A stretch of DNA of 64,000 nt from Thermoanaerobaculia bacterium (lineage in GTDB: Bacteria > Acidobacteriota > Thermoanaerobaculia > Gp7-AA8), in assembly GCA_038244715.1 (NCBI GenBank), contig JBBRTE010000016.1, positions 13,212 through 77,211 of the forward strand. Reading direction: 5' to 3'. The notes under the pieces were generated by a model. The model was not told the DNA's origin. It saw nothing but the letters and a program-made list of their open reading frames with translations, and did not search any database. The position numbers and the translations under genes were made by a program. Of the stretch, positions 13,198 to 62,628 are shown in pieces. Within the stretch, counting starts at the first letter, position 1, and every line of letters starts with the position of its first letter.

Positions 13198-14295
13198 CTA
13201 CTTCCCGCTCCATGCGTCGATCATCGTCATGAACTCGCCGAACAGGTGAAACGAGTCGTGCGGACCGGGCGCCGCCTCGGGATGGTACTGAACCGCCAGG
13301 ACCGGCTCGCGGCGATGGCGGAACCCTTCCAGCGTCTGATCGTTGAGGTTGATGTGGGTCGGCTCGACGTCATTCTCGTTCAGCGAGTCGGGATCGACCG
13401 AGAAGCCGTGGTTCTGCGCGGTGATCTCCACACGGCCGTTGCGCAAGTCCTTGACTGGATGATTTCCGCCGCGGTGTCCGAACTTTAGTTTGTAGGTGCG
13501 CCCGCCGAGAGCGAGACCGAGGAGCTGGTGGCCGAGGCAGATCCCGAAGATGGGGAGTTTGCCGATGAGATGGCGGATGTTCTCCTGCGCATACGTCACC
13601 GGCTCGGGATCGCCGGGTCCATTGGAGAGCATCAGGCCGTCGAAGTGCTGCGCCAGGATCTCGTCGGCGTGGGTCGTGGCGGGATAGACCGTCACGTCGC
13701 AACCGGCGCGTGAGAGGTGGCGGAGGATGTCGCGTTTGACGCCGAAGTCGTAGAGCGCGATGCGTTTCGTAGGATTGGCAGGCGGCTCGTTGAAGTGGTA
13801 CGGACGGAGCGCCGTCACGCGCTGCACGAGGTCGAGGCCGCTCATGGACGGCGCCTGGCGAATCTCTTCGACCACGCTGGCGACGGAGCGTTCGTTCTCG
13901 CCCGTGATCATGCCGCGCATCGCCCCTTCGTTGCGGATCCTGCGGGTCAGCGCGCGCGTGTCGATGCCCTGAATCGCGCTGATGCCGGTGCGCGCGAAGT
14001 AGTCCGGAAGCGACTCCTCTGAATGCGCGTTGGAGGGCTCGGCGATGGCGTCGCGCACGACGAAGCCGGCCACCTGCGGGTGCTCGTGCTGCGCGACGTC
14101 CGTCTCGATGCCGTAGTTTCCGATGTGCGGATACGTCATCACGACGATCTGGAATCGATACGAGGGGTCCGTGGCGATCTCCTGGTATCCAGCCATCGAC
14201 GTGTTGAACACGACTTCGCCGATCGTGTTGGCGGTGGCGCCAAACGACGCCCCTTCGTACACAGTTCCATCTTCGAGAATCAAGCGGGCAGGCAT
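13198..14295 (-). CDS. carA: carbamoyl-phosphate synthase small subunit
   Basis: MPARLILEDGTVYEG start. Glutamine amidotransferase triad region GICLGHQLL ... HPE. Start set at the internal Met; the longer ORF reads into the upstream repeat element. Confidence 0.9.
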   Translation of the reverse strand: MPARLILEDGTVYEGASFGATANTIGEVVFNTSMAGYQEIATDPSYRFQIVVMTYPHIGNYGIETDVAQHEHPQVAGFVVRDAIAEPSNAHSEESLPDYFARTGISAIQGIDTRALTRRIRNEGAMRGMITGENERSVASVVEEIRQAPSMSGLDLVQRVTALRPYHFNEPPANPTKRIALYDFGVKRDILRHLSRAGCDVTVYPATTHADEILAQHFDGLMLSNGPGDPEPVTYAQENIRHLIGKLPIFGICLGHQLLGLALGGRTYKLKFGHRGGNHPVKDLRNGRVEITAQNHGFSVDPDSLNENDVEPTHINLNDQTLEGFRHRREPVLAVQYHPEAAPGPHDSFHLFGEFMTMIDAWSGK

Positions 14296-49863: not shown

Positions 49864-50565
49864 TCAGGCTGCCGGGCGTGCCGCATCGACGATGCGTCCG
49901 TCACGGATGTGGATCGCGCGCTGCGCTTCCCGGGCGACGTCATCCTCATGCGTGACCATGATGATCGAGTTGCCGCGCGACGACAGCTCCCGGAAGAGGT
50001 CGAGAATCTCACGGCCGGTCTGCGAGTCGAGGTTTCCCGTCGGCTCGTCGGCGAGGAGCAGCGACGGCTTGTTGACGAGGGCCCGGGCGATGGCCACGCG
50101 CTGACGCTGACCACCGGAGAGCTCGTTCGGCTGGTGATTCATCCGATCGCCCAGTCCGACTGCCGTCAGCGCTTCCTCGGCCATGATCCGCCGCTCGGCG
50201 CGATTGATCTTGGCGTAGACCAGTGGCAGCTCGACGTTCTGCAGAGCGGTCGTACGGGAGAGCAGGTTGAACGTCTGGAACACGAATCCGATCTTCTTGT
50301 TGCGCACCGCGGCCAGCTCGTCGTCGTTCATCGATTCGACCGGTACGCCGTCGAGGATGTACTGCCCCGCCGTGGGGCGATCGAGGCAGCCGATGATGTT
50401 CATCAGCGTCGACTTGCCGGAGCCGGATGGTCCCATGATGGCGACGTATTCGCCGTTTTCGATCACGAGGTCCACGCCGCGGAGCGCGAAGATGTCCTGC
50501 GGTCCGAGTTGATAGGTGCGCGTCAGACCGCGCATTTCGATCAGGTGTTTGCCGTTCTCACTCAC
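49864..50565 (-). CDS. ABC transporter ATP-binding protein (MacB/LolD-type)
   Basis: Walker [10 protein letters not shown], signature LSGGQRQR, Walker B LLLADEPT. Confidence 0.9.
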
Positions 50566-51806
50566 TTTGAGGCCGTCCCGTTTTGAGGAGTAGTTGACTC
50601 TTCTTTCGTCACTTCTACGGAATCACCGTCTTTCAGTTTCTTCAGCGTGCGGAATGGTCCGGTGACGATCTGATCCTTCGCCGTCAGCCCCGAGGTAATC
50701 ACGACATGCGTGGTGTTGCTGACGCCGGTCGTGACCCGGGTCAGTTTTGCTTTGCCTTCCGCCACGACGAAAACGTACTTCAGCTTCGGTGCCTTCTCGT
50801 CCTCGTCTTCGGTGCCTGTCTTCGACTTCGCCAGCGACGGCGGGACGCGCTCGACGACGCTCTGAATCGGCACCGAGATGGCGCTCCCGGCGCTGGTTGT
50901 GACGATCGAGACCTGAGCGCTCATGCCAGGACGGAGGCGATCGTCGGGATTGTCGATCTGGACCTTGACCTTGAAGTAGCGCATGCCAGCCCCGGCGCCC
51001 TGTTTGAGGGCAGCGGAACTGCCGATTTCCGCGACATGTCCGGAGTACTCCTTCTCCGGGATGGCGTCGACGTGAACCTTCGCCGGCTCGTTCAACCGGA
51101 TCCCGGTGATCTCGGTCTCGCCGACATCCGCCTCGACGAGGATCTCGGAAAGGTCGGCGATGACGGCGATGACGGATCCGGGATTGTTCATCGTTCCGGT
51201 GATGACCACTTCGCCTTCATGGGCGTTGAGCTGCACCGCCTTGCCGGTGATGGGCGAAAGGATGGTCGTGTGATCCAGATCCGTCTGCGCCTGCTGCAAC
51301 AGCGCCTCGGCCTGATTTACACCCTGCCTCGAGGAGTCGTAACCGGCGACGGCATTGTCGTGACTCTGCCGGGCCTGGTCGAAAAGCTCCTGCGCCTGAA
51401 TGCCCTGCTTCTGCATGTTCTGCGCACGTTTGTACGCGGTCTCGGTCGTGGCCATAGCGGTCTTTGCGCGCACCACTTCGATCCGGCTGTTGGAGACCGC
51501 TGCCACCGCGCGGGCATGCGCAGCCTGATAGGCCGTCTTCTCCAGATCGACCAGTCGCTGTCCCTTGCGGACACTGTCTCCTTCGAGGAAGTAGATCTTC
51601 TCGATCTTCCCGACGATGTGCGCGCTGATGTTGACTTTGACCCTGGGATTGATCTCGCCGGGAGCGGTGACGATGGCCTGGATGTTCCGGGCCGTCGCCG
51701 GCTCGATGTAGACCTTCTCCCCTTTCGAGCCTCCGCCACGAACGCTGGCGAAGATGATCGCGCCGACGAGAACCAGCGCGCCGATGATGATCAGAGTGCG
51801 CTTCAT
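50562..51806 (-). CDS. efflux transporter periplasmic adaptor (MacA/HlyD family)
   Basis: N-terminal TM anchor, coiled-coil, lipoyl/beta-barrel domains. ATGA coupling to the ATPase. Confidence 0.85.
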
Positions 51807-52570
51807 TTATTGGCACGCAGCGACTGCAGAGCTGGTCCGATCAGCTTCAGGCACGTCGCGAGGAGCCAGAGACCGATGATGATCATCGCCGACTTCGCCT
51901 TCGACAGTCGCGAAACATACGCGAATCCGATGATGAGAAGTGCGAGGTACCAGATCGTGAAGAGATCGAGCGATGAGAGGAGCGCGAACGCCATCGGATT
52001 CGTTTTGTAATCCACGAGGAAGCCGGGGTTCGAACGGACGATGGTAGCCAGCGCCTGGGCGGGAACCATTCCGCCGCGCGCCACGATGATGATGACGGTC
52101 ACGATGCTCTTGATGATGCTCGGCATCGATGCATAACAGGTCACCGCGAACGCCTGCTTGAAGTCTCCCTCGCCACCGAAGAGGCGAAAAACCACGAGCA
52201 GGATGCCCGCGATGATCAGCAGAAAGATCGTGCCGATGACCGGTGAGATGTACGAGAAGACCTTGCCGAAGGTGTTCGTCATTTTCACCGCTTTGTCGAT
52301 CTGCTCCGCCGAGACGTTCTTGTTCTGCTCCATCGCTTCGCGCGTCGCGGAACCGAAGTCGACATGCTGGGCGATGACGAACCCGGCGCCGAGCGAGGTG
52401 ATCAGGATGAGAACGAGCGGCAGCACCCAGTCCGGCCTCCGGGCGATCGATGCAAAGGTCTGATTCGGCGAGAAGAGAACGCCGATCACCCGCTGCAGCG
52501 AATTGGGCGGCGGACCGGCGTCGATCACCGGTGGGGGCGTACCACGTGCGTCATCCTGACCTGTCGTCAT
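51803..52570 (-). CDS. Yip1 domain membrane protein
   Basis: 5-TM small membrane protein between the TolC-like and adaptor genes. Confidence 0.5.
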   Translation of the reverse strand: MTTGQDDARGTPPPVIDAGPPPNSLQRVIGVLFSPNQTFASIARRPDWVLPLVLILITSLGAGFVIAQHVDFGSATREAMEQNKNVSAEQIDKAVKMTNTFGKVFSYISPVIGTIFLLIIAGILLVVFRLFGGEGDFKQAFAVTCYASMPSIIKSIVTVIIIVARGGMVPAQALATIVRSNPGFLVDYKTNPMAFALLSSLDLFTIWYLALLIIGFAYVSRLSKAKSAMIIIGLWLLATCLKLIGPALQSLRANK

Positions 52571-52573
52571 GGC

Positions 52574-54316
52574 TCATTTCTCCTCAGGCGTGTTGTCGTG
52601 GGATGAAAAGTTGAGCCAATTGTAGCGGTTGAAGTTCGAGAAAATCGAAGGTTCCTGAACGGGCGGTTCATCGACCGAGATGTTGCGCGTGTCGAGAAGG
52701 TCGCCGACGGCGTGGTGATAGGCCGCGATCGCCTTGTTGTACCCGACCAGGGCCTGCAGTTCGCGGGCACGGGCATCCGAAAGCTGCTGCTGGACCTGCA
52801 GCACCTGGAAGTTGGTCGTCATGCCGTTCTCGTAGCGCTTCCGCTCGGCGTTGACGTTCTCTTCCGCGGCTTCGCGCGCCGTCCGGGTGGCAGCGATGTC
52901 CTTGGCCGACGTGTCGATGGCGCGCGCGGCCGTGCGCACGTCCACCGAGATGTTCTGGCGCGTCTGCGCCTCGATGCTCTGGGAGGCCTGCAGGTCGAGG
53001 CGCGCCCGGTTCTTCTCCGCGCGTGCGGCATAGTTGAAGATCGGCACGCCGATCGTTACGCCCACGTTCCAACCGGGGAAGTCGTTGCGGAAAACCTGCT
53101 GCACGGCGGAGTTGAAATTGGTCGAGGCGAGACCCGAAGCGGGATTGATGACGGTGCCCGCGGCGCCGGCAACGTTGTATCCAAGGTTCAGGTCGAACTG
53201 CGGCAGGACCTGATTGCGGGCGTAGTTGTAGGTGACGCGGCGAGTGGCCGTTGAAAGCGCGTTTTCCTTGATCTCGGGCCGGAGCTCATACGCGCGGGCC
53301 ACCGACTCCTCGACGTTGACATTCATCGGCGCATAGCCGATCGAATCGGTCGGGATGATGGGACGGTCCCAATCTTCCGGCGCCACGTTCAGCAGCGCGC
53401 GCAAACGATCCTCGGCAGCGCGGACACTGGCCACTGCGTTGATGAGGTTCTCTTCGCTCGTCGCGATCTGCACGCGCGGCTGGAGGATGTCCAGCGGCGC
53501 GGAGGCGCCCACGTCGATGCGGATCTGGGTGATGCGCGACTGGTCGCGGGAGAGGAAGAGTGCTTCCTTCACGACGTCGATGAAGCGTCGTGTGTAGATG
53601 AGATCGTAGTAGGCCTGCTCGACCGCCGACGTGCTGTCGAGGAGCAGTCCGCGGAAAGCCTCGCGGCCGATACCGAGGTTGTTGCGTGCGATGGTGATCC
53701 CGCGCCGTGTGACGTCGACGCCGAAGTTGCGGGCCAGCGGCTGCGTGAACCCGAGACCGAGACCGGTCGAGAAACCCGGGCTGATCGTCGTGCCGGCGCC
53801 GCTCCGGGTGAAGCGCTGATTGTTGGTCGAGATCGAGAAGAGGCCACCGGTCGGGATTGTGTCGCGGAGAAAGGCGTTTGCGTTCGTGGTCCCGCCTCCG
53901 CTGGCATCAAATGCGGAGAGCGCCGGACTCTGGTTGCTCGTACGGCTGAGCGTCGCGCCAGCCAGCGGATCGAAGATGCCGTAAGCGCCCATCACCTGCT
54001 CGCCCGACATCTGCAGGTCGTAGCGCTGAATCTGCAGGCCGATGTTCTTCTGCAGCATGGTGTGGATGGCGTCGTCGAGCGACAGACGCATGGCCCGCGG
54101 ATTGTTCGCGTCCTTGTCCGTATCCGCCGTCACGGAAACCGTCAGGGTACGGTCGGTGTTGGAAGTGTCGACGTTCTCCTGCGCCGGATCCGTGGTCACG
54201 GTGGCCGGCTGCGGCGCGGAAGTCTTCGTCGTAGTCTTTTTCGTCGTCTGCGCCGAAAGCGACACGGCGCTCGTCACGCAGGCAATGATCAGCAACCGTC
54301 GAACAGCGGTATTCAT
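52574..54316 (-). CDS. TolC family outer membrane protein
   Basis: Signal peptide MNTAVRRLLIIACVTSAVSLSA. Duplicated TolC repeats, terminal coiled-coil regions. Confidence 0.8.
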   Translation of the reverse strand: MNTAVRRLLIIACVTSAVSLSAQTTKKTTTKTSAPQPATVTTDPAQENVDTSNTDRTLTVSVTADTDKDANNPRAMRLSLDDAIHTMLQKNIGLQIQRYDLQMSGEQVMGAYGIFDPLAGATLSRTSNQSPALSAFDASGGGTTNANAFLRDTIPTGGLFSISTNNQRFTRSGAGTTISPGFSTGLGLGFTQPLARNFGVDVTRRGITIARNNLGIGREAFRGLLLDSTSAVEQAYYDLIYTRRFIDVVKEALFLSRDQSRITQIRIDVGASAPLDILQPRVQIATSEENLINAVASVRAAEDRLRALLNVAPEDWDRPIIPTDSIGYAPMNVNVEESVARAYELRPEIKENALSTATRRVTYNYARNQVLPQFDLNLGYNVAGAAGTVINPASGLASTNFNSAVQQVFRNDFPGWNVGVTIGVPIFNYAARAEKNRARLDLQASQSIEAQTRQNISVDVRTAARAIDTSAKDIAATRTAREAAEENVNAERKRYENGMTTNFQVLQVQQQLSDARARELQALVGYNKAIAAYHHAVGDLLDTRNISVDEPPVQEPSIFSNFNRYNWLNFSSHDNTPEEK

Positions 54317-54466
54317 GTAAACCCTCCTGGACACGCCTCTTCTACGCAACACCATCTTGATTGTTTCGGGCGCGCGTCACTCCACAGCGACGCCCGAAAG
54401 GACGCGATTTGGCGCGCATTGTAGTCTGCACACCCTACGTTTGACGCCGGGAAACGTCGAATGTCG

Positions 54467-55516
54467 CTACGACGGCGTCGCCGATGGCACCGGCGCCCCG
54501 GCGAAGTGACACGCGGCGAACTGACCCGGCTTGTGCTCGATGAGCGGAGGGACGACCTCCCCGCAGATCGGGAACTGCGCGATCGGACAACGCGTATGGA
54601 ACACGCAGCCACTCGGAGGATTGAGCGGCGTGGGGATATCACCGTGAAGAATGATCCGGCTCTTGTGCCTGGTGGGATCCGGAATCGGGACGGCCGAGAG
54701 CAGCGCTTTCGTGTACGGATGCAACGGGTCGGCGTAGAGCTCGCGGCGCCCCGCCAGCTCCATGATCTTGCCGAGGTACATCACGGCCACACGGGTTGAG
54801 ATGTGCTCGACGACCGACAGATCGTGCGCGATGAAGAGATACGTCAGCCCAAGTTGTTCCTGGAGATCCTGCAGCAGATTGACGACCTGCGCCTGCACGG
54901 AGACGTCGAGCGCGGAGACCGGCTCGTCCAGCACGAGGAACTTCGGATTCGTCGCCAGGGCGCGCGCCACCCCGATGCGCTGCCGCTGCCCGCCGGAGAA
55001 CTCGTGCGGATAGCGCTTGCGATAGTCGGGGCTCAGCCCGACCGTCTCGAGCAACTGCGCGACGCGTGCGTCGCGATCGCTCGATGACAGCCGAGCATGA
55101 ATGATCAGCGGCTCCGCGATGATCGTGCCCACCGTCATCCGCGGGTTGAGCGACGCATAGGGGTCCTGAAAGACGATCTGCATGTGCCGCCGCATCCGGC
55201 GCATGTCGCCGGAGTCGAGTGTGAGGACGTCGTCGCCTTCAAAGACGACACTTCCGGACGTGGGCTCGATCAACCGGAGGATGCAGCGTCCGACCGTGGT
55301 CTTGCCGGAACCCGACTCGCCGACGAGACCGAGCGTCTCTCCGCGGCCGATGTCGAAACTGACGCCGTCGACCGCCTTGACCTGTGCCACAACGCGCGCG
55401 AGCACGCCGCGCTTGACCGGAAAATGCTTGGTGAGGTCGCGAACCTCCAGGAGCGGCTCGCCTGTTCCCAGCGGGAGCGCGGGCGGCTGCAGAGTCGCGA
55501 CGGGATCGATGGTCAC
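54467..55516 (-). CDS. oligopeptide/dipeptide ABC transporter ATP-binding protein (OppF/DppF-like), GTG start
   Basis: Walker [18 protein letters not shown], and C-terminal CxxC region [13 protein letters not shown] characteristic of Opp/Dpp ATPases. Confidence 0.85.
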
Positions 55517-55540
55517 GACCGGGCTTCTCCGTTTGAAACC

Positions 55541-55652
55541 GAATGTTGAATGTTCAAGCTTAAATGTTCAATGTTGAATGAGGTGTGCTTCACGACCAGA
55601 TCTCGTACCCATTCAGCATCCAACATCCAACATTGAACATTCAACATTTTCA
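55541..55652. repeat. AT-rich heptad-repeat palindrome (ATGTTGA/ATGTTCA units in inverted arms) between oppD-like and oppF-like genes
   Basis: Left arm GAATGTTGAATGTTCAAGCTTAAATGTTCAATGTTGAATGAGG; right arm CATTCAGCATCCAACATCCAACATTGAACATTCAACATTTTCA; ~30-bp spacer. Locally about 35% GC in a high-GC genome. Confidence 0.7.
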
Positions 55653-56683
55653 ATTCTCTCCAACCCGCTCCGGATCGGCCTGATCTCCGTGCAGATAGCA
55701 CCGCGCGTCGTGGCCCGGCGCGACGATCATCCGGGCCGGCTCGTTGCCGAGGCAGATGTCCATGACGTCGGGGCAGCGGGGGTTGAACTTGCAGCCGCGC
55801 GGCAGGTTCGTGATCGGCGGCACCATTCCCTTGATCGTCGGCAGACGGTGCGGCGCGGAAGGATCGCCACCGCGAACGCTCGGCAGCGACTTGAGCAGAC
55901 CGCGCGTATAGGGATGAGCGGGATTGGCGAACAGGTCGCGCACCGGCGCCTCCTCGACGACGCGGCCCGTGTACATCACCACCACGCGCTCGCAGAACTC
56001 TGCGACGACGCCGAGATCGTGCGTGATGAGCAGGATCGCCAGGCCCAGCCGCTGCTGGAGTGATGCGAGCAACTCCATGATCTGGGCCTGGATGGTCACG
56101 TCGAGCGCCGTGGTCGGCTCGTCGGCGATCAGTAGTTCCGGATCGCACGACAGCGCCATGGCGATCATCACGCGTTGTCGCATGCCGCCCGAAAGCTGGT
56201 GCGGATAGTCGTCGAGGCGCTTGATCGGATCGGGGATCGAGACCAGTTCCAGCATCTCCCCCGCCCGCTTCCACGCCTCCTTCTTCGACACCTTGTTGTG
56301 AATGCGCACGGCCTCGGCCACCTGCGCGCCGATCTTGAAGACGGGATTCAGCGACGTCATCGGCTCCTGGAAGACCATGGCGATGTCGTTGCCACGTACG
56401 GTGCGCATCTCGCGCTCGGAGAGGTCGGCAAGGTTCCGTCCCTTGAAACTGACGACGCCGGAGGTGATGCGACCCGGCGGGGCGACCAGACGCATGATCG
56501 ACATCGCCGTCACACTTTTGCCGCAGCCCGACTCCCCGACCAGCGCCAGCGCTTCCCCTTTGCGGACGTTGAAGGAGACATTGTCGACCGCGTGGACGAG
56601 TCCGTTGGCGGACGGGAATGAGGTGCGGAGGTTCTTCACCTCGAGGATGGCCTCGCGCGGGTCGACCTCGACATCGGCCACGC
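55650..56683 (-). CDS. oligopeptide/dipeptide ABC transporter ATP-binding protein (OppD/DppD-like), GTG start at 56683
   Basis: Walker [19 protein letters not shown]-terminal [17 protein letters not shown] sits 5 nt before the GTG. The longer listed ORF N-terminus is R-rich and lacks an RBS. Confidence 0.8.
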
Positions 56684-56785
56684 GCGCTCCGGGGCTTCCG
56701 AGAGGCTGACCCGTCTGGCCGTTGGCGATCGTCGGATGCTCAGTCACGCGAGTTGGAATCGTAGCAAGAATGGTGTCAGCACGCG

Positions 56786-58450
56786 CTATCGCCGTCGGAA
56801 TCGGAGCAGCGTCGCCCGCGCCTCTGGAACACCAAGCGCGAGGGCCGCACCGAAGTAAGCGACTCCGAATGCGCCGGCTGCGAGCAGGGCTTCGACGATG
56901 TGGCTTAACGGGAGGTGCGGCGTGACAAGAGGCGCCACGTAGTGATCGCACGCGATTCCGGCAACCGCGGCAAGCAGACCCGCGCCCCAGAGCCGCATCA
57001 GGAACGATGGCGCCAGTTTGACGAAGCCGACGCGACGCGCTAACGCACGCCGCAGCATCGCGAACTCAATCCAACCCGCCATCCCCGCCGAGGCGGTGAG
57101 ACCGATCACACCCAGCAGCGAGGTGCCTTCGGGAAGTTGCGGCAGCGGCATGTGAAGAAAGAGGATCAGGTCAATGATGTAGGGACGCAGCGGAAAGGCG
57201 AAGAGGAGTCCGAGCACGGCCGTCAGACTTACGCGCAGGATCGCAAAGCGAAGGGGTGTCTTCGGATCGCGCAGCGCGTAAAACACAGAGGAGTACAGCC
57301 GCCCAAGAGTGACGGCGAGCATGCCGAACGTCGAACCGACGAGGATGTACCAGACATAGAGCGAGTCATCGCTGCGGAACTGGCCCGTCTGATAAAGAGC
57401 GGCAACGAGCACGCGGCCGATGAAGATGAAGGCCATCACCGTCGGCACAACGAAGAAAGCGATCTGGCGCAAACCACGATCGAGCCGCTTGCGCAACGCC
57501 GTATTGATCTCTTCCTCGGTCCCTACCGCACCGGACATCTGCGGCAACTCGGCTGCTGCCACTGACATCCCGAACAGACTGATCGGCAGGAAGTAGATCG
57601 TCTGGGCATACGACAGAGCCGCCACCGCTGCCGTGCCGAGATAACTGGCGATGACCTGGTCGATATAGCCGCTGAGCTGGACGACCCCGCGCCCGATCAC
57701 CACCGGACCGAAGCTGCGAATGACTTCGCGCACGGGCTCGAGCGCGACCTGCAACGAGAGTCGAATCCGTGGCGCGTACTTGAGAACGAACGGGACCTGA
57801 ACTCCGAACTGAAGAGCGGAGCCAACGACCGTTCCCCAGGAAAGAGCGATCGCCAGTCCGCTCTGGGACGAACGACCGCCGAAGAAAACCAGCGAGGCGA
57901 TCATCGCCGCATTCCAGAACACCGGCGCGACGTAGGACAGGAAGAACTTGTGATGGCTGTTCAGGACACCGAGACACCACGCTGACAGGACGAGAAGCCC
58001 GGTGGACGGAAAAAGGATCTGGACAATTCGGATCGTCAGCAAACGAACTTCGCCGTGAAAGCCCGGCGCGATCAGATCGATGATCCACGGAGTGAGGATC
58101 ACGCAGACGACCACGATGAGGCCCACGACGACCGCTAGAAGCGACAGGATCACGCCGGCGAGGCGGCCGGCCAACTCGTCGTCGTCCTTCGCGATCAACT
58201 TGGCGTAGACCGGAATAAACGACGCTGAGAGGACGCCTTCCCCGAAAAGATTCTGCAGAAAGTTCGGGATTTTCAGTCCGGCCTTGTATGCGCCCGCGGC
58301 CGCCGAGTTGCCTAGATAGTGGGCAAAGACACGTTCCCGAACGAGACCGGCCACCCGGCTGAGCAGAATGCCGGAGGCGACAAGAACCGCGAACCCCGCG
58401 GCGCGCGGTTTCGCTTTGATGGGAACTTCCGGTTGAGGATCGGTATTCAT
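56786..58450 (-). CDS. murJ: lipid II flippase MurJ (MviN)
   Basis: 14-TM MOP-family protein with typical N-terminus [19 protein letters not shown] and 554 aa length. Confidence 0.85.
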
Positions 58451-58518
58451 CGCTGATGAGGCGCGCGAAGCCTATTGCGGAATTCGCGCCTGAACCGCGC
58501 GGTACCATACCGCGACCC

Positions 58519-59682
58519 ATGCAGGATCATCACCCGATCCGGATCGCAGGCGCCGGCCCCTCCGGCCTCACCGCAGCAATCATCCTCGCCCGCGCTGGCA
58601 GGTTCGTCGAGGTCCATGAGGCCAAGCGCGACGTGGGGACGCGCTTCATCGGCGACCTGCAGATCATCGAGGGAGCATCCGAGAGTGAGCCGGTGCCCGC
58701 GTTTCTCGACCGCCTCGGCATCGAGCGCAATTTCTATTTTCGTCCCGCGACGTCCGCCACCTTCTACGACCATCGGCAGAACGCCCGCGTGATCCGCAGC
58801 GATCAACCGTACGGATACTTCATCCACCGCGGTGCGGAAGAGGGAACGCTCGACCGCGGACTGCTCGCGCAGGCGCAGCAGGCCGGGGCGAAGATCGTGT
58901 TCAACAGCCGGCTGGCGATCGATCAGGCCGACATCGTCGCCACCGGGCCGGCATCTCCGGATGGACTCGCGAAAGAGATCACGTGGAAGGTGGCCAACGC
59001 GGAAAACAAATCTCAGGAGCTCGTCGACGTCTACTTCAACCACAAGCTCGCTCCGGGCGGCTACTCCTATCTGTTCATCCTCGACGGCGTGGCCACCTTC
59101 GGCTGCGCGATCGTGGCCGACTTCAAGCAGATCGACTCCTACTTCGATCACTCGCTCGCCGCTGCCCGAAAACTCCATGGCTTCGACGTACCGTCCGACG
59201 CGCGGACCGGCTACTCGTACATGAACTTTCATCTGAAGCGCGCGGCGACTGCGAACGGGTCGCGGTTCGTCGGCGAGGCCGCCGGATTTCAGGACTACCT
59301 CTTCGGACTCGGCATCCGCTACGCGATCACGAGCGGTTCGCTGGCCGCGCAGAGCATCCTCGAGAATCGCGATTACGACGAGCTGTGGAAGCAGGATCTG
59401 CGGGGAAAGCAGGAGACGAGCCTCGTCAACCGGTTTCTGTACGAAGCCGGCGGAAACTTCGGGCTGTCGATGTTCGTGCGGCAGGCCGGCCGGGCGAAGG
59501 ATTTTCATCGCTACCTGAGCGGATGGCATCGCCATACCTGGTGGAAGTCGATGCTCGCGCCGCTCGTGCGCCGCTTCTGGAAGCATGACGGCCGTTGCCT
59601 TCACAAGCCCGGCCCGCATTGGTGCCGTTCGCGCGATACCGAGATGAAGGTTCCGGCCCTTGGACCCGTCGAGTTGAAATGA
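58519..59682 (+). CDS. FAD-dependent oxidoreductase, geranylgeranyl reductase family-like
   Basis: IRIAGAGPSGLTAAIILARAG Rossmann motif; VGEAAGFQDYLFGLGIRYAITSG resembles the GGR GDAAG motif region. Confidence 0.65.
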   Translation: MQDHHPIRIAGAGPSGLTAAIILARAGRFVEVHEAKRDVGTRFIGDLQIIEGASESEPVPAFLDRLGIERNFYFRPATSATFYDHRQNARVIRSDQPYGYFIHRGAEEGTLDRGLLAQAQQAGAKIVFNSRLAIDQADIVATGPASPDGLAKEITWKVANAENKSQELVDVYFNHKLAPGGYSYLFILDGVATFGCAIVADFKQIDSYFDHSLAAARKLHGFDVPSDARTGYSYMNFHLKRAATANGSRFVGEAAGFQDYLFGLGIRYAITSGSLAAQSILENRDYDELWKQDLRGKQETSLVNRFLYEAGGNFGLSMFVRQAGRAKDFHRYLSGWHRHTWWKSMLAPLVRRFWKHDGRCLHKPGPHWCRSRDTEMKVPALGPVELK

Positions 59683-62570: not shown

Positions 62571-62593
62571 GTCGCACGCAGTGCTGCTCACAA

Positions 62594-62628
62594 GGGGACC
62601 CGCGGAAACGCGGGTCCTTTTTGTTTTT
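62594..62628 (+). terminator. intrinsic terminator after rpsU
   Basis: GGACCCGCG-GAAA-CGCGGGTCC stem-loop followed by TTTTTGTTTTT. Confidence 0.75.

Follow-up and report, generated by a model that had tools for sequence, protein, structure and literature searches.

A heptad-repeat stem-loop between the oppD- and oppF-like genes of a Thermoanaerobaculia bacterium, with resemblance to intervening sequences

The 64,000-nucleotide stretch of contig JBBRTE010000016.1 (GenBank assembly GCA_038244715.1, positions 13,212 to 77,211) from a metagenome-assembled genome of a Thermoanaerobaculia bacterium (Acidobacteriota), hereafter the window, carries a long stem-loop between two genes for Opp-type ABC ATPases, oppD and oppF. 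The arms of the stem-loop are tandem arrays of heptanucleotides (heptads). With slightly better than even confidence, the element is interpreted as a gene-less, partly decayed, selfish or near-neutral heptad stem-loop in the oppDF mRNA that resembles an intervening sequence (IVS). Many Thermoanaerobaculia contain stem-loops of this class in abundance, and members are found in Cyanobacteria, Bacteroidota and Gemmatimonadota as well. Coordinates are collected in Table 1; comparison loci are designated by L numbers, with positions within them given after a colon.

Each arm of the element is 39 nt long, and the repeat search found the arms to be 82% complementary and 29 nt apart. Tandem Repeats Finder assigned both arms a period of 7, with 5.7 and 5.6 copies. 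Read by unit in the mRNA sense, the first arm consists of AATGTTG, AATGTTC, AATGTTG, GATGTTG, GATGCTG and AATG, and the 3' arm contains a single non-heptad unit, AGCTTAA. The GC content is 0.475 at the element versus 0.60-0.69 in the flanks. The 15-mer core ATGTTGAATGTTCAA, with up to 2 mismatches, has three matches in the 64-kb window, all within the element, and none in shuffled sequences. The predicted fold of the mRNA strand has a free energy of -54.4 kcal/mol (z = -6.6), a stability reached by 0 of 200 shuffles, and that of the opposite strand -46.3 kcal/mol (z = -6.15). The stem of about 39 bp formed by the terminal inverted repeats exceeds the length of about 20 bp or more that is used as a criterion for IVS. 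A preliminary description, made from the letters of this DNA, had reported a long imperfect palindrome of heptads, AT-rich within GC-rich surroundings, able to form, in the transcript of oppD and oppF, a stem of about 40 bp and followed on the minus strand by GGAGAAG and a GTG start; all of this is borne out by the repeat searches, the base composition, the RNA folding and the gene map. The coordinates in the same description take in the oppD stop codon, and the intercistronic gap measures 133 nt (55517-55649) and not 112. A scan of 54000-57500 with Rfam covariance models gave chance-level matches only, none on the element, and no rRNA match.

The same junction was compared in 28 syntenic loci and the window, 29 in all, with the oppD stop and the oppF start placed in each. 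A heptad array lies in the oppD-oppF gap of 19 of the 29, in 18 of them as a two-armed hairpin, which disposes of the possibility raised at the outset that the site is a random AT-rich spacer without conservation at the syntenic position. Element-bearing lineages include some in which OppF is only 81-91% identical to that of the window. The site is kept, and the repeat unit changes: six unit types are found (Table 1). Among the 17 hairpins that were measured, complementarity between the arms of one hairpin is 82-100% (mean 0.95) and 545 of 582 stem positions are Watson-Crick pairs, as against a mean complementarity of 0.57 when arms with different unit types are cross-compared. The window hairpin is the worst paired of the 17, with 82% Watson-Crick pairs versus 90-100% in the others. 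Loops at the junction are 16-133 nt long and mutually unrelated, and outer stems in unique flanking sequence are present in L001, L015, L016, L017 and L018. In the relatives the oppD stop codon either precedes the array by 0-6 nt or is part of it.

In a rough tree of OppD plus OppF, the basal lineages are without the element and the unit types are scattered over the tree. L007, in which there is no hairpin and the two genes overlap, is nested among close hairpin-bearing relatives and has therefore lost the hairpin. Clean loss is seen in L007, L013, L023 and L027, where the genes abut or overlap, and only degenerate edges of the hairpin are left in L009. In L024 (L024:9950-9986) the 5' array is the sole remnant and now forms part of the oppD frame, at its 3' end; the 3' arm is gone.

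Inverted heptad arrays are not restricted to this junction. The fetched loci (Thermoanaerobaculia 377 kb, other phyla 904 kb) were scanned by period for arrays of at least 3 copies. Period-7 arrays number 87 in the Thermoanaerobaculia loci (0.231/kb) and 23 in those of other phyla (0.025/kb), a difference of about 9-fold, and the densities of period 5 and 6 arrays do not differ between the two sets. GGGAGTC, GTTGTCG, GGCTGTC, GAGTGCT, GAGTCCT and CTAGGGA are further units among the inverted pairs. The G-rich array is the 5' arm in 40 of 40 inverted pairs, drawn from at least 12 distinct sites, and, because an inverted repeat is symmetric, this is true on either strand; the window hairpin likewise has its G-rich arm first. 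In the majority of pairs, no more than about 10 nt separate the start from the stop codon of a gene that reads into the pair, or the two overlap. A search with TGTTGAATGTTSAA found oppD-oppF as its sole locus in the window and all 163 comparison loci; it is the architecture that is dispersed and not the motif. Near-identical multiple copies, as in MITEs, the miniature inverted-repeat transposable elements, are thus absent from these loci. A consensus shared across sites, as in repetitive extragenic palindromic (REP) sequences and bacterial interspersed mosaic elements, was not found either, the units being locus-specific; REP-associated tyrosine transposases (RAYT) were not searched for.

Among the control loci of other phyla, inverted heptad pairs were seen solely in Gemmatimonadota and other Acidobacteriota (L033:15135-15291, Gemmatimonas; L079:2955-3030 and 13725-13790; L041:11215-11278, Blastocatellia). 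The Gemmatimonas unit, GGGACTG / CCCCAGT, presumably matches the STRR1 unit of the cyanobacterial short tandemly repeated repetitive (STRR) sequences. A three-frame stop array was considered as a rule for the class and rejected: units with TGA close all frames, GCAGAA-type and GGGAGTC-type units are stop-free, and what is left is a tendency.

Some of the heptad pairs enclose a gene. Between macB-type ATPase and permease genes of L012, L015, L016, L023 and L024, heptad pairs with arrays of GAGTGCT / GAGTGCC / GTGTGCT flank a loop of 400-510 nt. The enclosed open reading frame (ORF) encodes about 130 aa and matches PF05635 (23S rRNA intervening-sequence protein) at E = 1e-26 to 1e-34, as well as TIGR02436 (four helix bundle protein) and, weakly, bAvd-like proteins; its C-terminal tail, …STQHSALST…, is encoded by the 3' array. 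PF05635 is similar to Avd of diversity-generating retroelements (PMC10053308). The generality of the association was checked in metagenome contigs of the Joint Genome Institute, which were scanned with an alignment of the five cassette proteins and yielded 80 PF05635 loci (L084-L163). In 68 of them the contig reaches 150 nt or more beyond the gene in each direction. Period-7 arrays bracket the gene on both sides in 44 of the 68, lie on one side in 18 and are missing from both in 6. Their density is 3.27/kb within 300 nt of a PF05635 gene versus 0.38/kb in the rest of the contigs (8.6-fold), and periods 5, 6, 8 and 9 are not enriched near these genes. The order of the arms is kept here as well, with G exceeding C in 59 upstream arrays versus 11, and C exceeding G in 68 downstream arrays versus 19. 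All three frames are closed in 33 of 70 upstream arrays. GGGGACT-type units occur beside PF05635 genes in L093, L121 and L137, and in L094, L125 and L157 the arrays are greatly expanded (13 to about 20 units).

Six named plasmid records (L164-L169) were added, and a heptad bracket was found in five, from Nostocales and Riemerella (units in Table 1); Gemmatirosa is only partly similar. Two cyanobacterial cassettes, those of Nostoc punctiforme and Trichormus variabilis, are compact: the 5' array fills the interval between the upstream stop codon and the ATG, with an AGGAG in it, and the end of the ORF runs into the 3' array. Searches of the metagenomes for PF05635 cassettes beside oppD/oppF returned only generic ABC-ATPase neighbours at about 30% identity. 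Neither a general link between heptamers and PF05635 nor cassettes in an mRNA context were found in the literature searched, in which subscription journals were not covered.

The hairpins behave like insertions. In pairwise blastn comparisons of close relatives, alignments stop precisely at the hairpins. L007 is without all four hairpins of L005 and L010, all three hairpins of L006 are absent or replaced in L009, and the window keeps one of the five hairpins known at syntenic sites in its relatives. Loss of all hairpins at once in close relatives suggests a factor that maintains or purges them genome-wide, in a pattern that is not strict. Genome-wide presence or absence was rejected as a strict rule and holds only in part: L012, L022, L023 and L025 have other arrays and no oppDF heptad hairpin, and L008, L014 and L019 have the oppDF heptad hairpin and no other arrays. 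Comparison of filled (L004/L005) with empty (L007) sites revealed no flanking direct repeat that would represent a target-site duplication. A flavoprotein-like gene with weak matches to NAD/FAD-binding families (window 58456-59682, plus strand) contains one of the hairpin sites. In L010 (L010:5734-5878) the heptad hairpin at this site is translated in frame, as an insert of 52 aa rich in Gly/Ser/Arg and then in Pro/Thr/Ser; the window and L007 (L007:6005-6026) have short plain linkers there. At another site, the window (62590-62625, minus strand) and L006 (L006:665-700) share a conserved GC-stem/U-tract terminator that is flanked on each side by A- and T-runs. In L006 it is adjoined by a hairpin of GTTGTCG heptads that has an outer stem, CTAGCGCGCG, and the window has the terminator and no hairpin.

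Complementarity of the arms appears to be kept without regard to strand. Mismatched stem pairs, in the mRNA sense, comprise 7 G-U versus 13 A-C over 582 positions, and sense and antisense folding energies differ in inconsistent directions across loci. Selection acting on the mRNA strand was rejected on these grounds, and the strand symmetry argues that a process at the DNA level keeps the arms complementary. The advantage of the sense strand in the window (-54.4 vs -46.3) is due to three G-U pairs in a decaying copy. At the RNA level, a processing hairpin is the most plausible consequence, since RNase III cuts the stems of 23S rRNA IVS, which are the closest relatives that have been characterised (PMC4990558).

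The following account is consistent with these observations. Elements of the class are composed, in fixed order, of G-rich tandem heptads, a loop and the complementary array, usually starting at or just after the upstream stop codon. The full form holds a PF05635 gene, encoding an Avd-like four-helix-bundle protein (S23p), in its loop, which is the design of ORF-bearing 23S rRNA IVS, and gene-less and gene-bearing forms may be related by descent. The window copy would be carried passively in the oppDF transcript, folded to a double-stranded stem of about 39 bp. RNase III would probably cut this stem, by analogy with IVS stems, and separate the oppD and oppF parts of the mRNA, with the oppF ribosome-binding site remaining free outside the stem. 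The operon would tolerate the insertion, and no regulator dedicated to opp would be involved. The unit sequence probably turns over through replication slippage, and the arms would probably be kept complementary by a strand-symmetric DNA process, e.g. template switching between arms. As for the order of the arms, a C-rich arm transcribed first could act as a single-stranded Rho loading site and cause polarity, so that the G-first order alone would survive in operons. A telomere-like origin, with G-rich units added at both 3' ends of a break and giving the G-first order, would be a speculative alternative.

Several observations weigh against the interpretation as a selfish or near-neutral IVS-like insertion. 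The element is the sole period-7 array in the 64-kb window, and its AATGTTG unit is AT-rich and confined to oppD-oppF, the units elsewhere being GC-rich. The window contains no PF05635 gene or fragment, and a profile search of six-frame translations of the short and medium loops detected no decayed copy; as no such remnant was found in either place, what connects the gene-less with the gene-bearing forms is a common architecture and their presence in the same genomes. The five macB-site cassettes share one syntenic site and count as one event. A non-heptad hairpin with 31-nt arms (CTCAATGGAGGACAGGCACTCGTGCCTGTCC …) occupies the oppD-oppF spot in L012 (L012:9900-9975), and in L009 (L009:6101-6183) a non-heptad palindrome is translated in frame at the flavoprotein-gene position; in view of such palindromes, the hairpins may have come first, with the heptads as a later mutational overlay. 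That the element persists at a single operon junction in much of a taxonomic class could, in addition, reflect a host benefit. The corresponding explanation, that the host has selected an intercistronic RNA element which sets the relative stability or translation of oppD and oppF, as a REP-like 3' stabiliser of the oppD segment or a dedicated processing site, is considered rather unlikely, though deserving of some weight. Of 29 loci, 19 have kept the element at this junction, in lineages with OppF only 81-91% identical to that of the window, and its position is constant, after the oppD stop and before the ribosome-binding site of oppF, which is left free; both points agree with this explanation, and the hairpin of L012 suggests that a hairpin per se is retained. 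Against this stand the clean loss from four loci and decay in a fifth (L009), the absence from the basal lineages, the recurrence of the same architecture at many unrelated junctions and even in frame within a gene, and G-U pairs without mRNA-strand bias; OppD and OppF would also be expected in equal amounts, which leaves a device for differential stability without obvious purpose.

A pure mutational by-product, with slippage that favours 7-nt units filling tolerated hairpins or spacers and with PF05635 genes as unrelated passengers, is judged unlikely. Among the long simple repeats of many bacteria, heptamers are reported to be the most over-represented, with polymerase slippage as the proposed cause (PMC4679880, PMC4692102). 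Such an origin would fit the locus-specific units, the frequent overlap of the first unit with local sequence or the stop codon, and the occupation of some of the same sites by non-heptad palindromes; slippage alone leaves unexplained the inverted pairing of the arrays, the G-rich arm first in 40 of 40 pairs, the 8.6-fold concentration of period 7, and of no other period, at PF05635 genes, and the simultaneous absence of all copies in close relatives. Two functions suggested in the preliminary description find little room. An intrinsic terminator or attenuator that reduces read-through into oppF is very improbable: the hairpin is very stable and directly 3' of a stop codon, and U-tract-less terminators have been proposed for GC-rich bacteria, yet no terminator-like site was found in 54300-57000, with neither a U-tract nor a consensus terminator, the stem is AT-rich and very long, and the class is also present within a translated gene. 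L006, moreover, has a genuine GC-stem/U-tract terminator beside a heptad hairpin, so that the two are separate things. No promoter consensus was found at the oppD-oppF junction, including none for oppF, which speaks against a terminator and equally against an iteron-like array of DNA binding sites for a regulator of opp or of the efflux cluster. The latter is hardly credible, even though short direct repeats in two inverted blocks, AT-rich in a GC-rich genome, have that appearance: the unit is not conserved at orthologous sites, where six types are found, dozens of sites with unrelated units exist in the same genomes, and the element lies between two presumably co-transcribed genes and not at a promoter. 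The IVS-like insertion is retained as the preferred interpretation.

Heptamer repeats have been described before. The finding that heptamers are over-represented genome-wide is attributed to a 2007 study (PMC4679880, PMC4692102). Xanthomonas genomes contain 70-75 convergent pairs of GGGAATC heptamers each, which are capable of forming stem-loops, transcribed, of unknown function and, in two species, largely placed at corresponding intergenic positions; the GGGGA(C/T)T repeats found in Nostoc were treated together with them (Rehm et al. 2015, PMC4692102). The elements described here are likewise intergenic tandem heptads in convergent inverted pairs (those of Xanthomonas and Nostoc mostly with about 4 units). 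They differ in having one unit per site, whereas in Xanthomonas one G-rich unit, read as G-quadruplex-forming, dominates genome-wide (PMC4692102). The window unit is AT-rich and no quadruplex is possible. No link to PF05635 was drawn in that study (Rehm et al. 2015, PMC4692102). The TAACTGA repeats of Beggiatoaceae and cyanobacteria are intergenic, are present in 2-6 copies and contain stop codons (MacGregor 2015, PMC4679880). They resemble the present arrays as stop-codon-containing heptamers near gene boundaries and differ in being direct repeats just upstream of starts, with one inverted case and a single genome-wide unit. The 23S rRNA IVS of Coxiella is regarded as a selfish element and has a 28-bp terminal stem, an S23p ORF and, in its 5' part, tandem GACAGAT heptamers of strain-variable copy number, with an RNase III cut at the start of the first repeat (PMC4990558). 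The window element shares a long inverted-repeat stem with the ORF-bearing IVS of Coxiella and Leptospira, in which the stem encloses an S23p / PF05635 ORF (PMC4990558). In contrast to these IVS, which lie in helix 45 or helix 25 of 23S rRNA, it is located between two protein-coding genes, and its 29-nt loop is without an ORF.

Further classes of repeats are comparable in part. The STRR sequences, reportedly first described by Mazel et al. in 1990, are tandem heptamers in non-coding DNA of heterocystous cyanobacteria and belong to few genome-wide unit families. Tandem heptanucleotides are common to both, and heterocystous cyanobacteria are the taxa whose plasmids bear heptad-bracketed four-helix-bundle genes; the small number of unit families and the other phylum set the STRR apart. 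Correia/nemis elements of Neisseria and MITE-type hairpins are short palindromic insertions that are co-transcribed with the genes beside them; their long hairpins are processed by RNase III, which alters mRNA stability. These elements have a conserved, multicopy sequence, are bounded by terminal inverted repeats that are unique in sequence, and are flanked by target-site duplications, whereas the window element is locus-specific, has arms of tandem heptads and shows no visible target duplication. Rickettsia palindromic elements are selfish, follow a conserved consensus and can sit in frame in protein-coding genes and be translated. The flavoprotein-gene copy of L010 is translated in frame in the same manner, but the heptad arrays have no conserved consensus and belong to a different phylum.

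Both genes flanking the element carry PF08352, a domain specific to Opp/Dpp ATPases. A database protein (P0001) is 100% identical to the OppF-like protein of the window, and the closest homologues are from metagenome-assembled genomes of Thermoanaerobaculia / Acidobacteriota. The listed oppD ORF is probably too long, with the real start near 56.7 kb, because the orthologues in L001 and L003 are called at 352 aa. Neither a permease nor a binding-protein gene adjoins the two Opp-type ATPase genes in window 49864-58450 (minus strand). The cluster has the order murJ, oppD, oppF, outer-membrane efflux protein (OEP), Yip1, MacA-like adaptor and MacB-type ABC genes, which is identical in L001.

Table 1. 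Features of the oppD-oppF junction, repeat units at the orthologous junctions, and PF05635 cassettes.
Feature	Position or loci	Strand	Remarks
oppD-like ABC ATPase ORF	55650-56951	minus	PF00005 + PF08352 (oligo_HPY)
oppD stop codon TGA	55650-55652	minus	within heptad-like unit TTGAAAA, immediately 5' of first arm
Entire predicted stem-loop	55534-55656	minus	minimum free energy fold; few outer pairs beyond heptads (GAAUUGA with UCGGUUUC)
5' arm in mRNA sense	55610-55648	minus	AATGTTGAATGTTCAATGTTGGATGTTGGATGCTGAATG, about 5.6 heptads, G > C
Loop	55581-55609	minus	29 nt, GC content genome-like, no conservation in relatives
3' arm in mRNA sense	55542-55580	minus	CATTCAACATTGAACATTTAAGCTTGAACATTCAACATT, complement array, one degenerate unit
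Shine-Dalgarno-like GGAGAAG of oppF	55524-55530	minus	outside stem
oppF-like ABC ATPase gene	54467-55516	minus	GTG start (55516-55514); PF00005 + PF08352
AATGTTG unit, oppD-oppF	window, L001, L002, L004, L005, L006, L008, L010, L016, L019
GATTGAG unit, oppD-oppF	L011, L014
AAATTGA unit, oppD-oppF	L003, L015, L017
GGCAGAA unit, oppD-oppF	L018; L024		L024: 5' arm only
CGCAGAA unit, oppD-oppF	L020
ATGCAGA unit, oppD-oppF	L028
PF05635 cassettes, macB site	L012:15456-15940, L015:5731-6230, L016:13523-13990, L023:15442-15928, L024:15750-16323	same orientation as operon
PF05635 cassette, Nostoc punctiforme pNPUN02			unit GTCAGGA
PF05635 cassette, Calothrix brevissima			unit GGGTGTA
PF05635 cassette, Trichormus variabilis			unit CAGAAGT
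PF05635 cassette, Nostoc ATCC 53789			unit GGGAAAA
PF05635 cassette, Riemerella			unit GGTTCAA

An N-terminal extension of OppF of about 45 aa (M-PDKPFIPGDDKVAPAITGGL…) is conserved in L005, L007, L011, L013-L020 and L027 (L005:9855-10000, L007:9854-10000) and is absent from the window, L001, L004, L006 and L008. Its variation even among very close relatives suggests recombination at the oppD-oppF junction. The idea that OppF annotations of 390-410 aa are ORFs running back through a stop-free 3' arm was rejected; the extension is real and the hairpin lies upstream of it. A small ORF through the hairpin, ending at the oppF start, was likewise dropped, as perfect AAATTGA arrays close all frames. 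One frame is open through the hairpin in the window and, by reading of the sequence, in L001. The AATGTTG 5' arms (L001:3986-4024, L004, L005, L010) have a recurrent G-to-C variant, TGTTCAA, on the unit whose TGA would close the third frame; one frame is therefore open through the AATGTTG array, which is not so in AAATTGA arrays.

The feature is real and ordinary in its local role, and the class to which it belongs is poorly understood and apparently under-described. Taken alone, the window hairpin is a tolerated operon insertion that says little on the regulation of opp. Annotators of these lineages should not take a palindrome at a gene junction for a regulatory site when it is AT-rich or of low complexity, nor odd repeat-encoded linkers or tails for real protein features. 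A wider proposal, tentative and on balance doubtful, is that inverted heptad stems are the hallmark of a selfish IVS family that extends across phyla and from 23S rRNA into mRNAs, both in intercistronic gaps and in frame within genes, with an Avd-like PF05635 pentamer that recognises, maintains or spreads the arrays. If true, it would explain the 35-year-old over-representation of STRR and other heptamers, the G-first topology and, via a trans-acting factor, the all-at-once losses, and the window hairpin would be an orphan, in decay because its genome has ceased to support the family. The accumulation of heptamers, noted as STRR since 1990, and the role of the S23p / four-helix-bundle "IVS protein" are apparently two faces of one element. 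If this is true, both puzzles would be testable by simple experiments, and intervening sequences would no longer be a feature of rRNA only.

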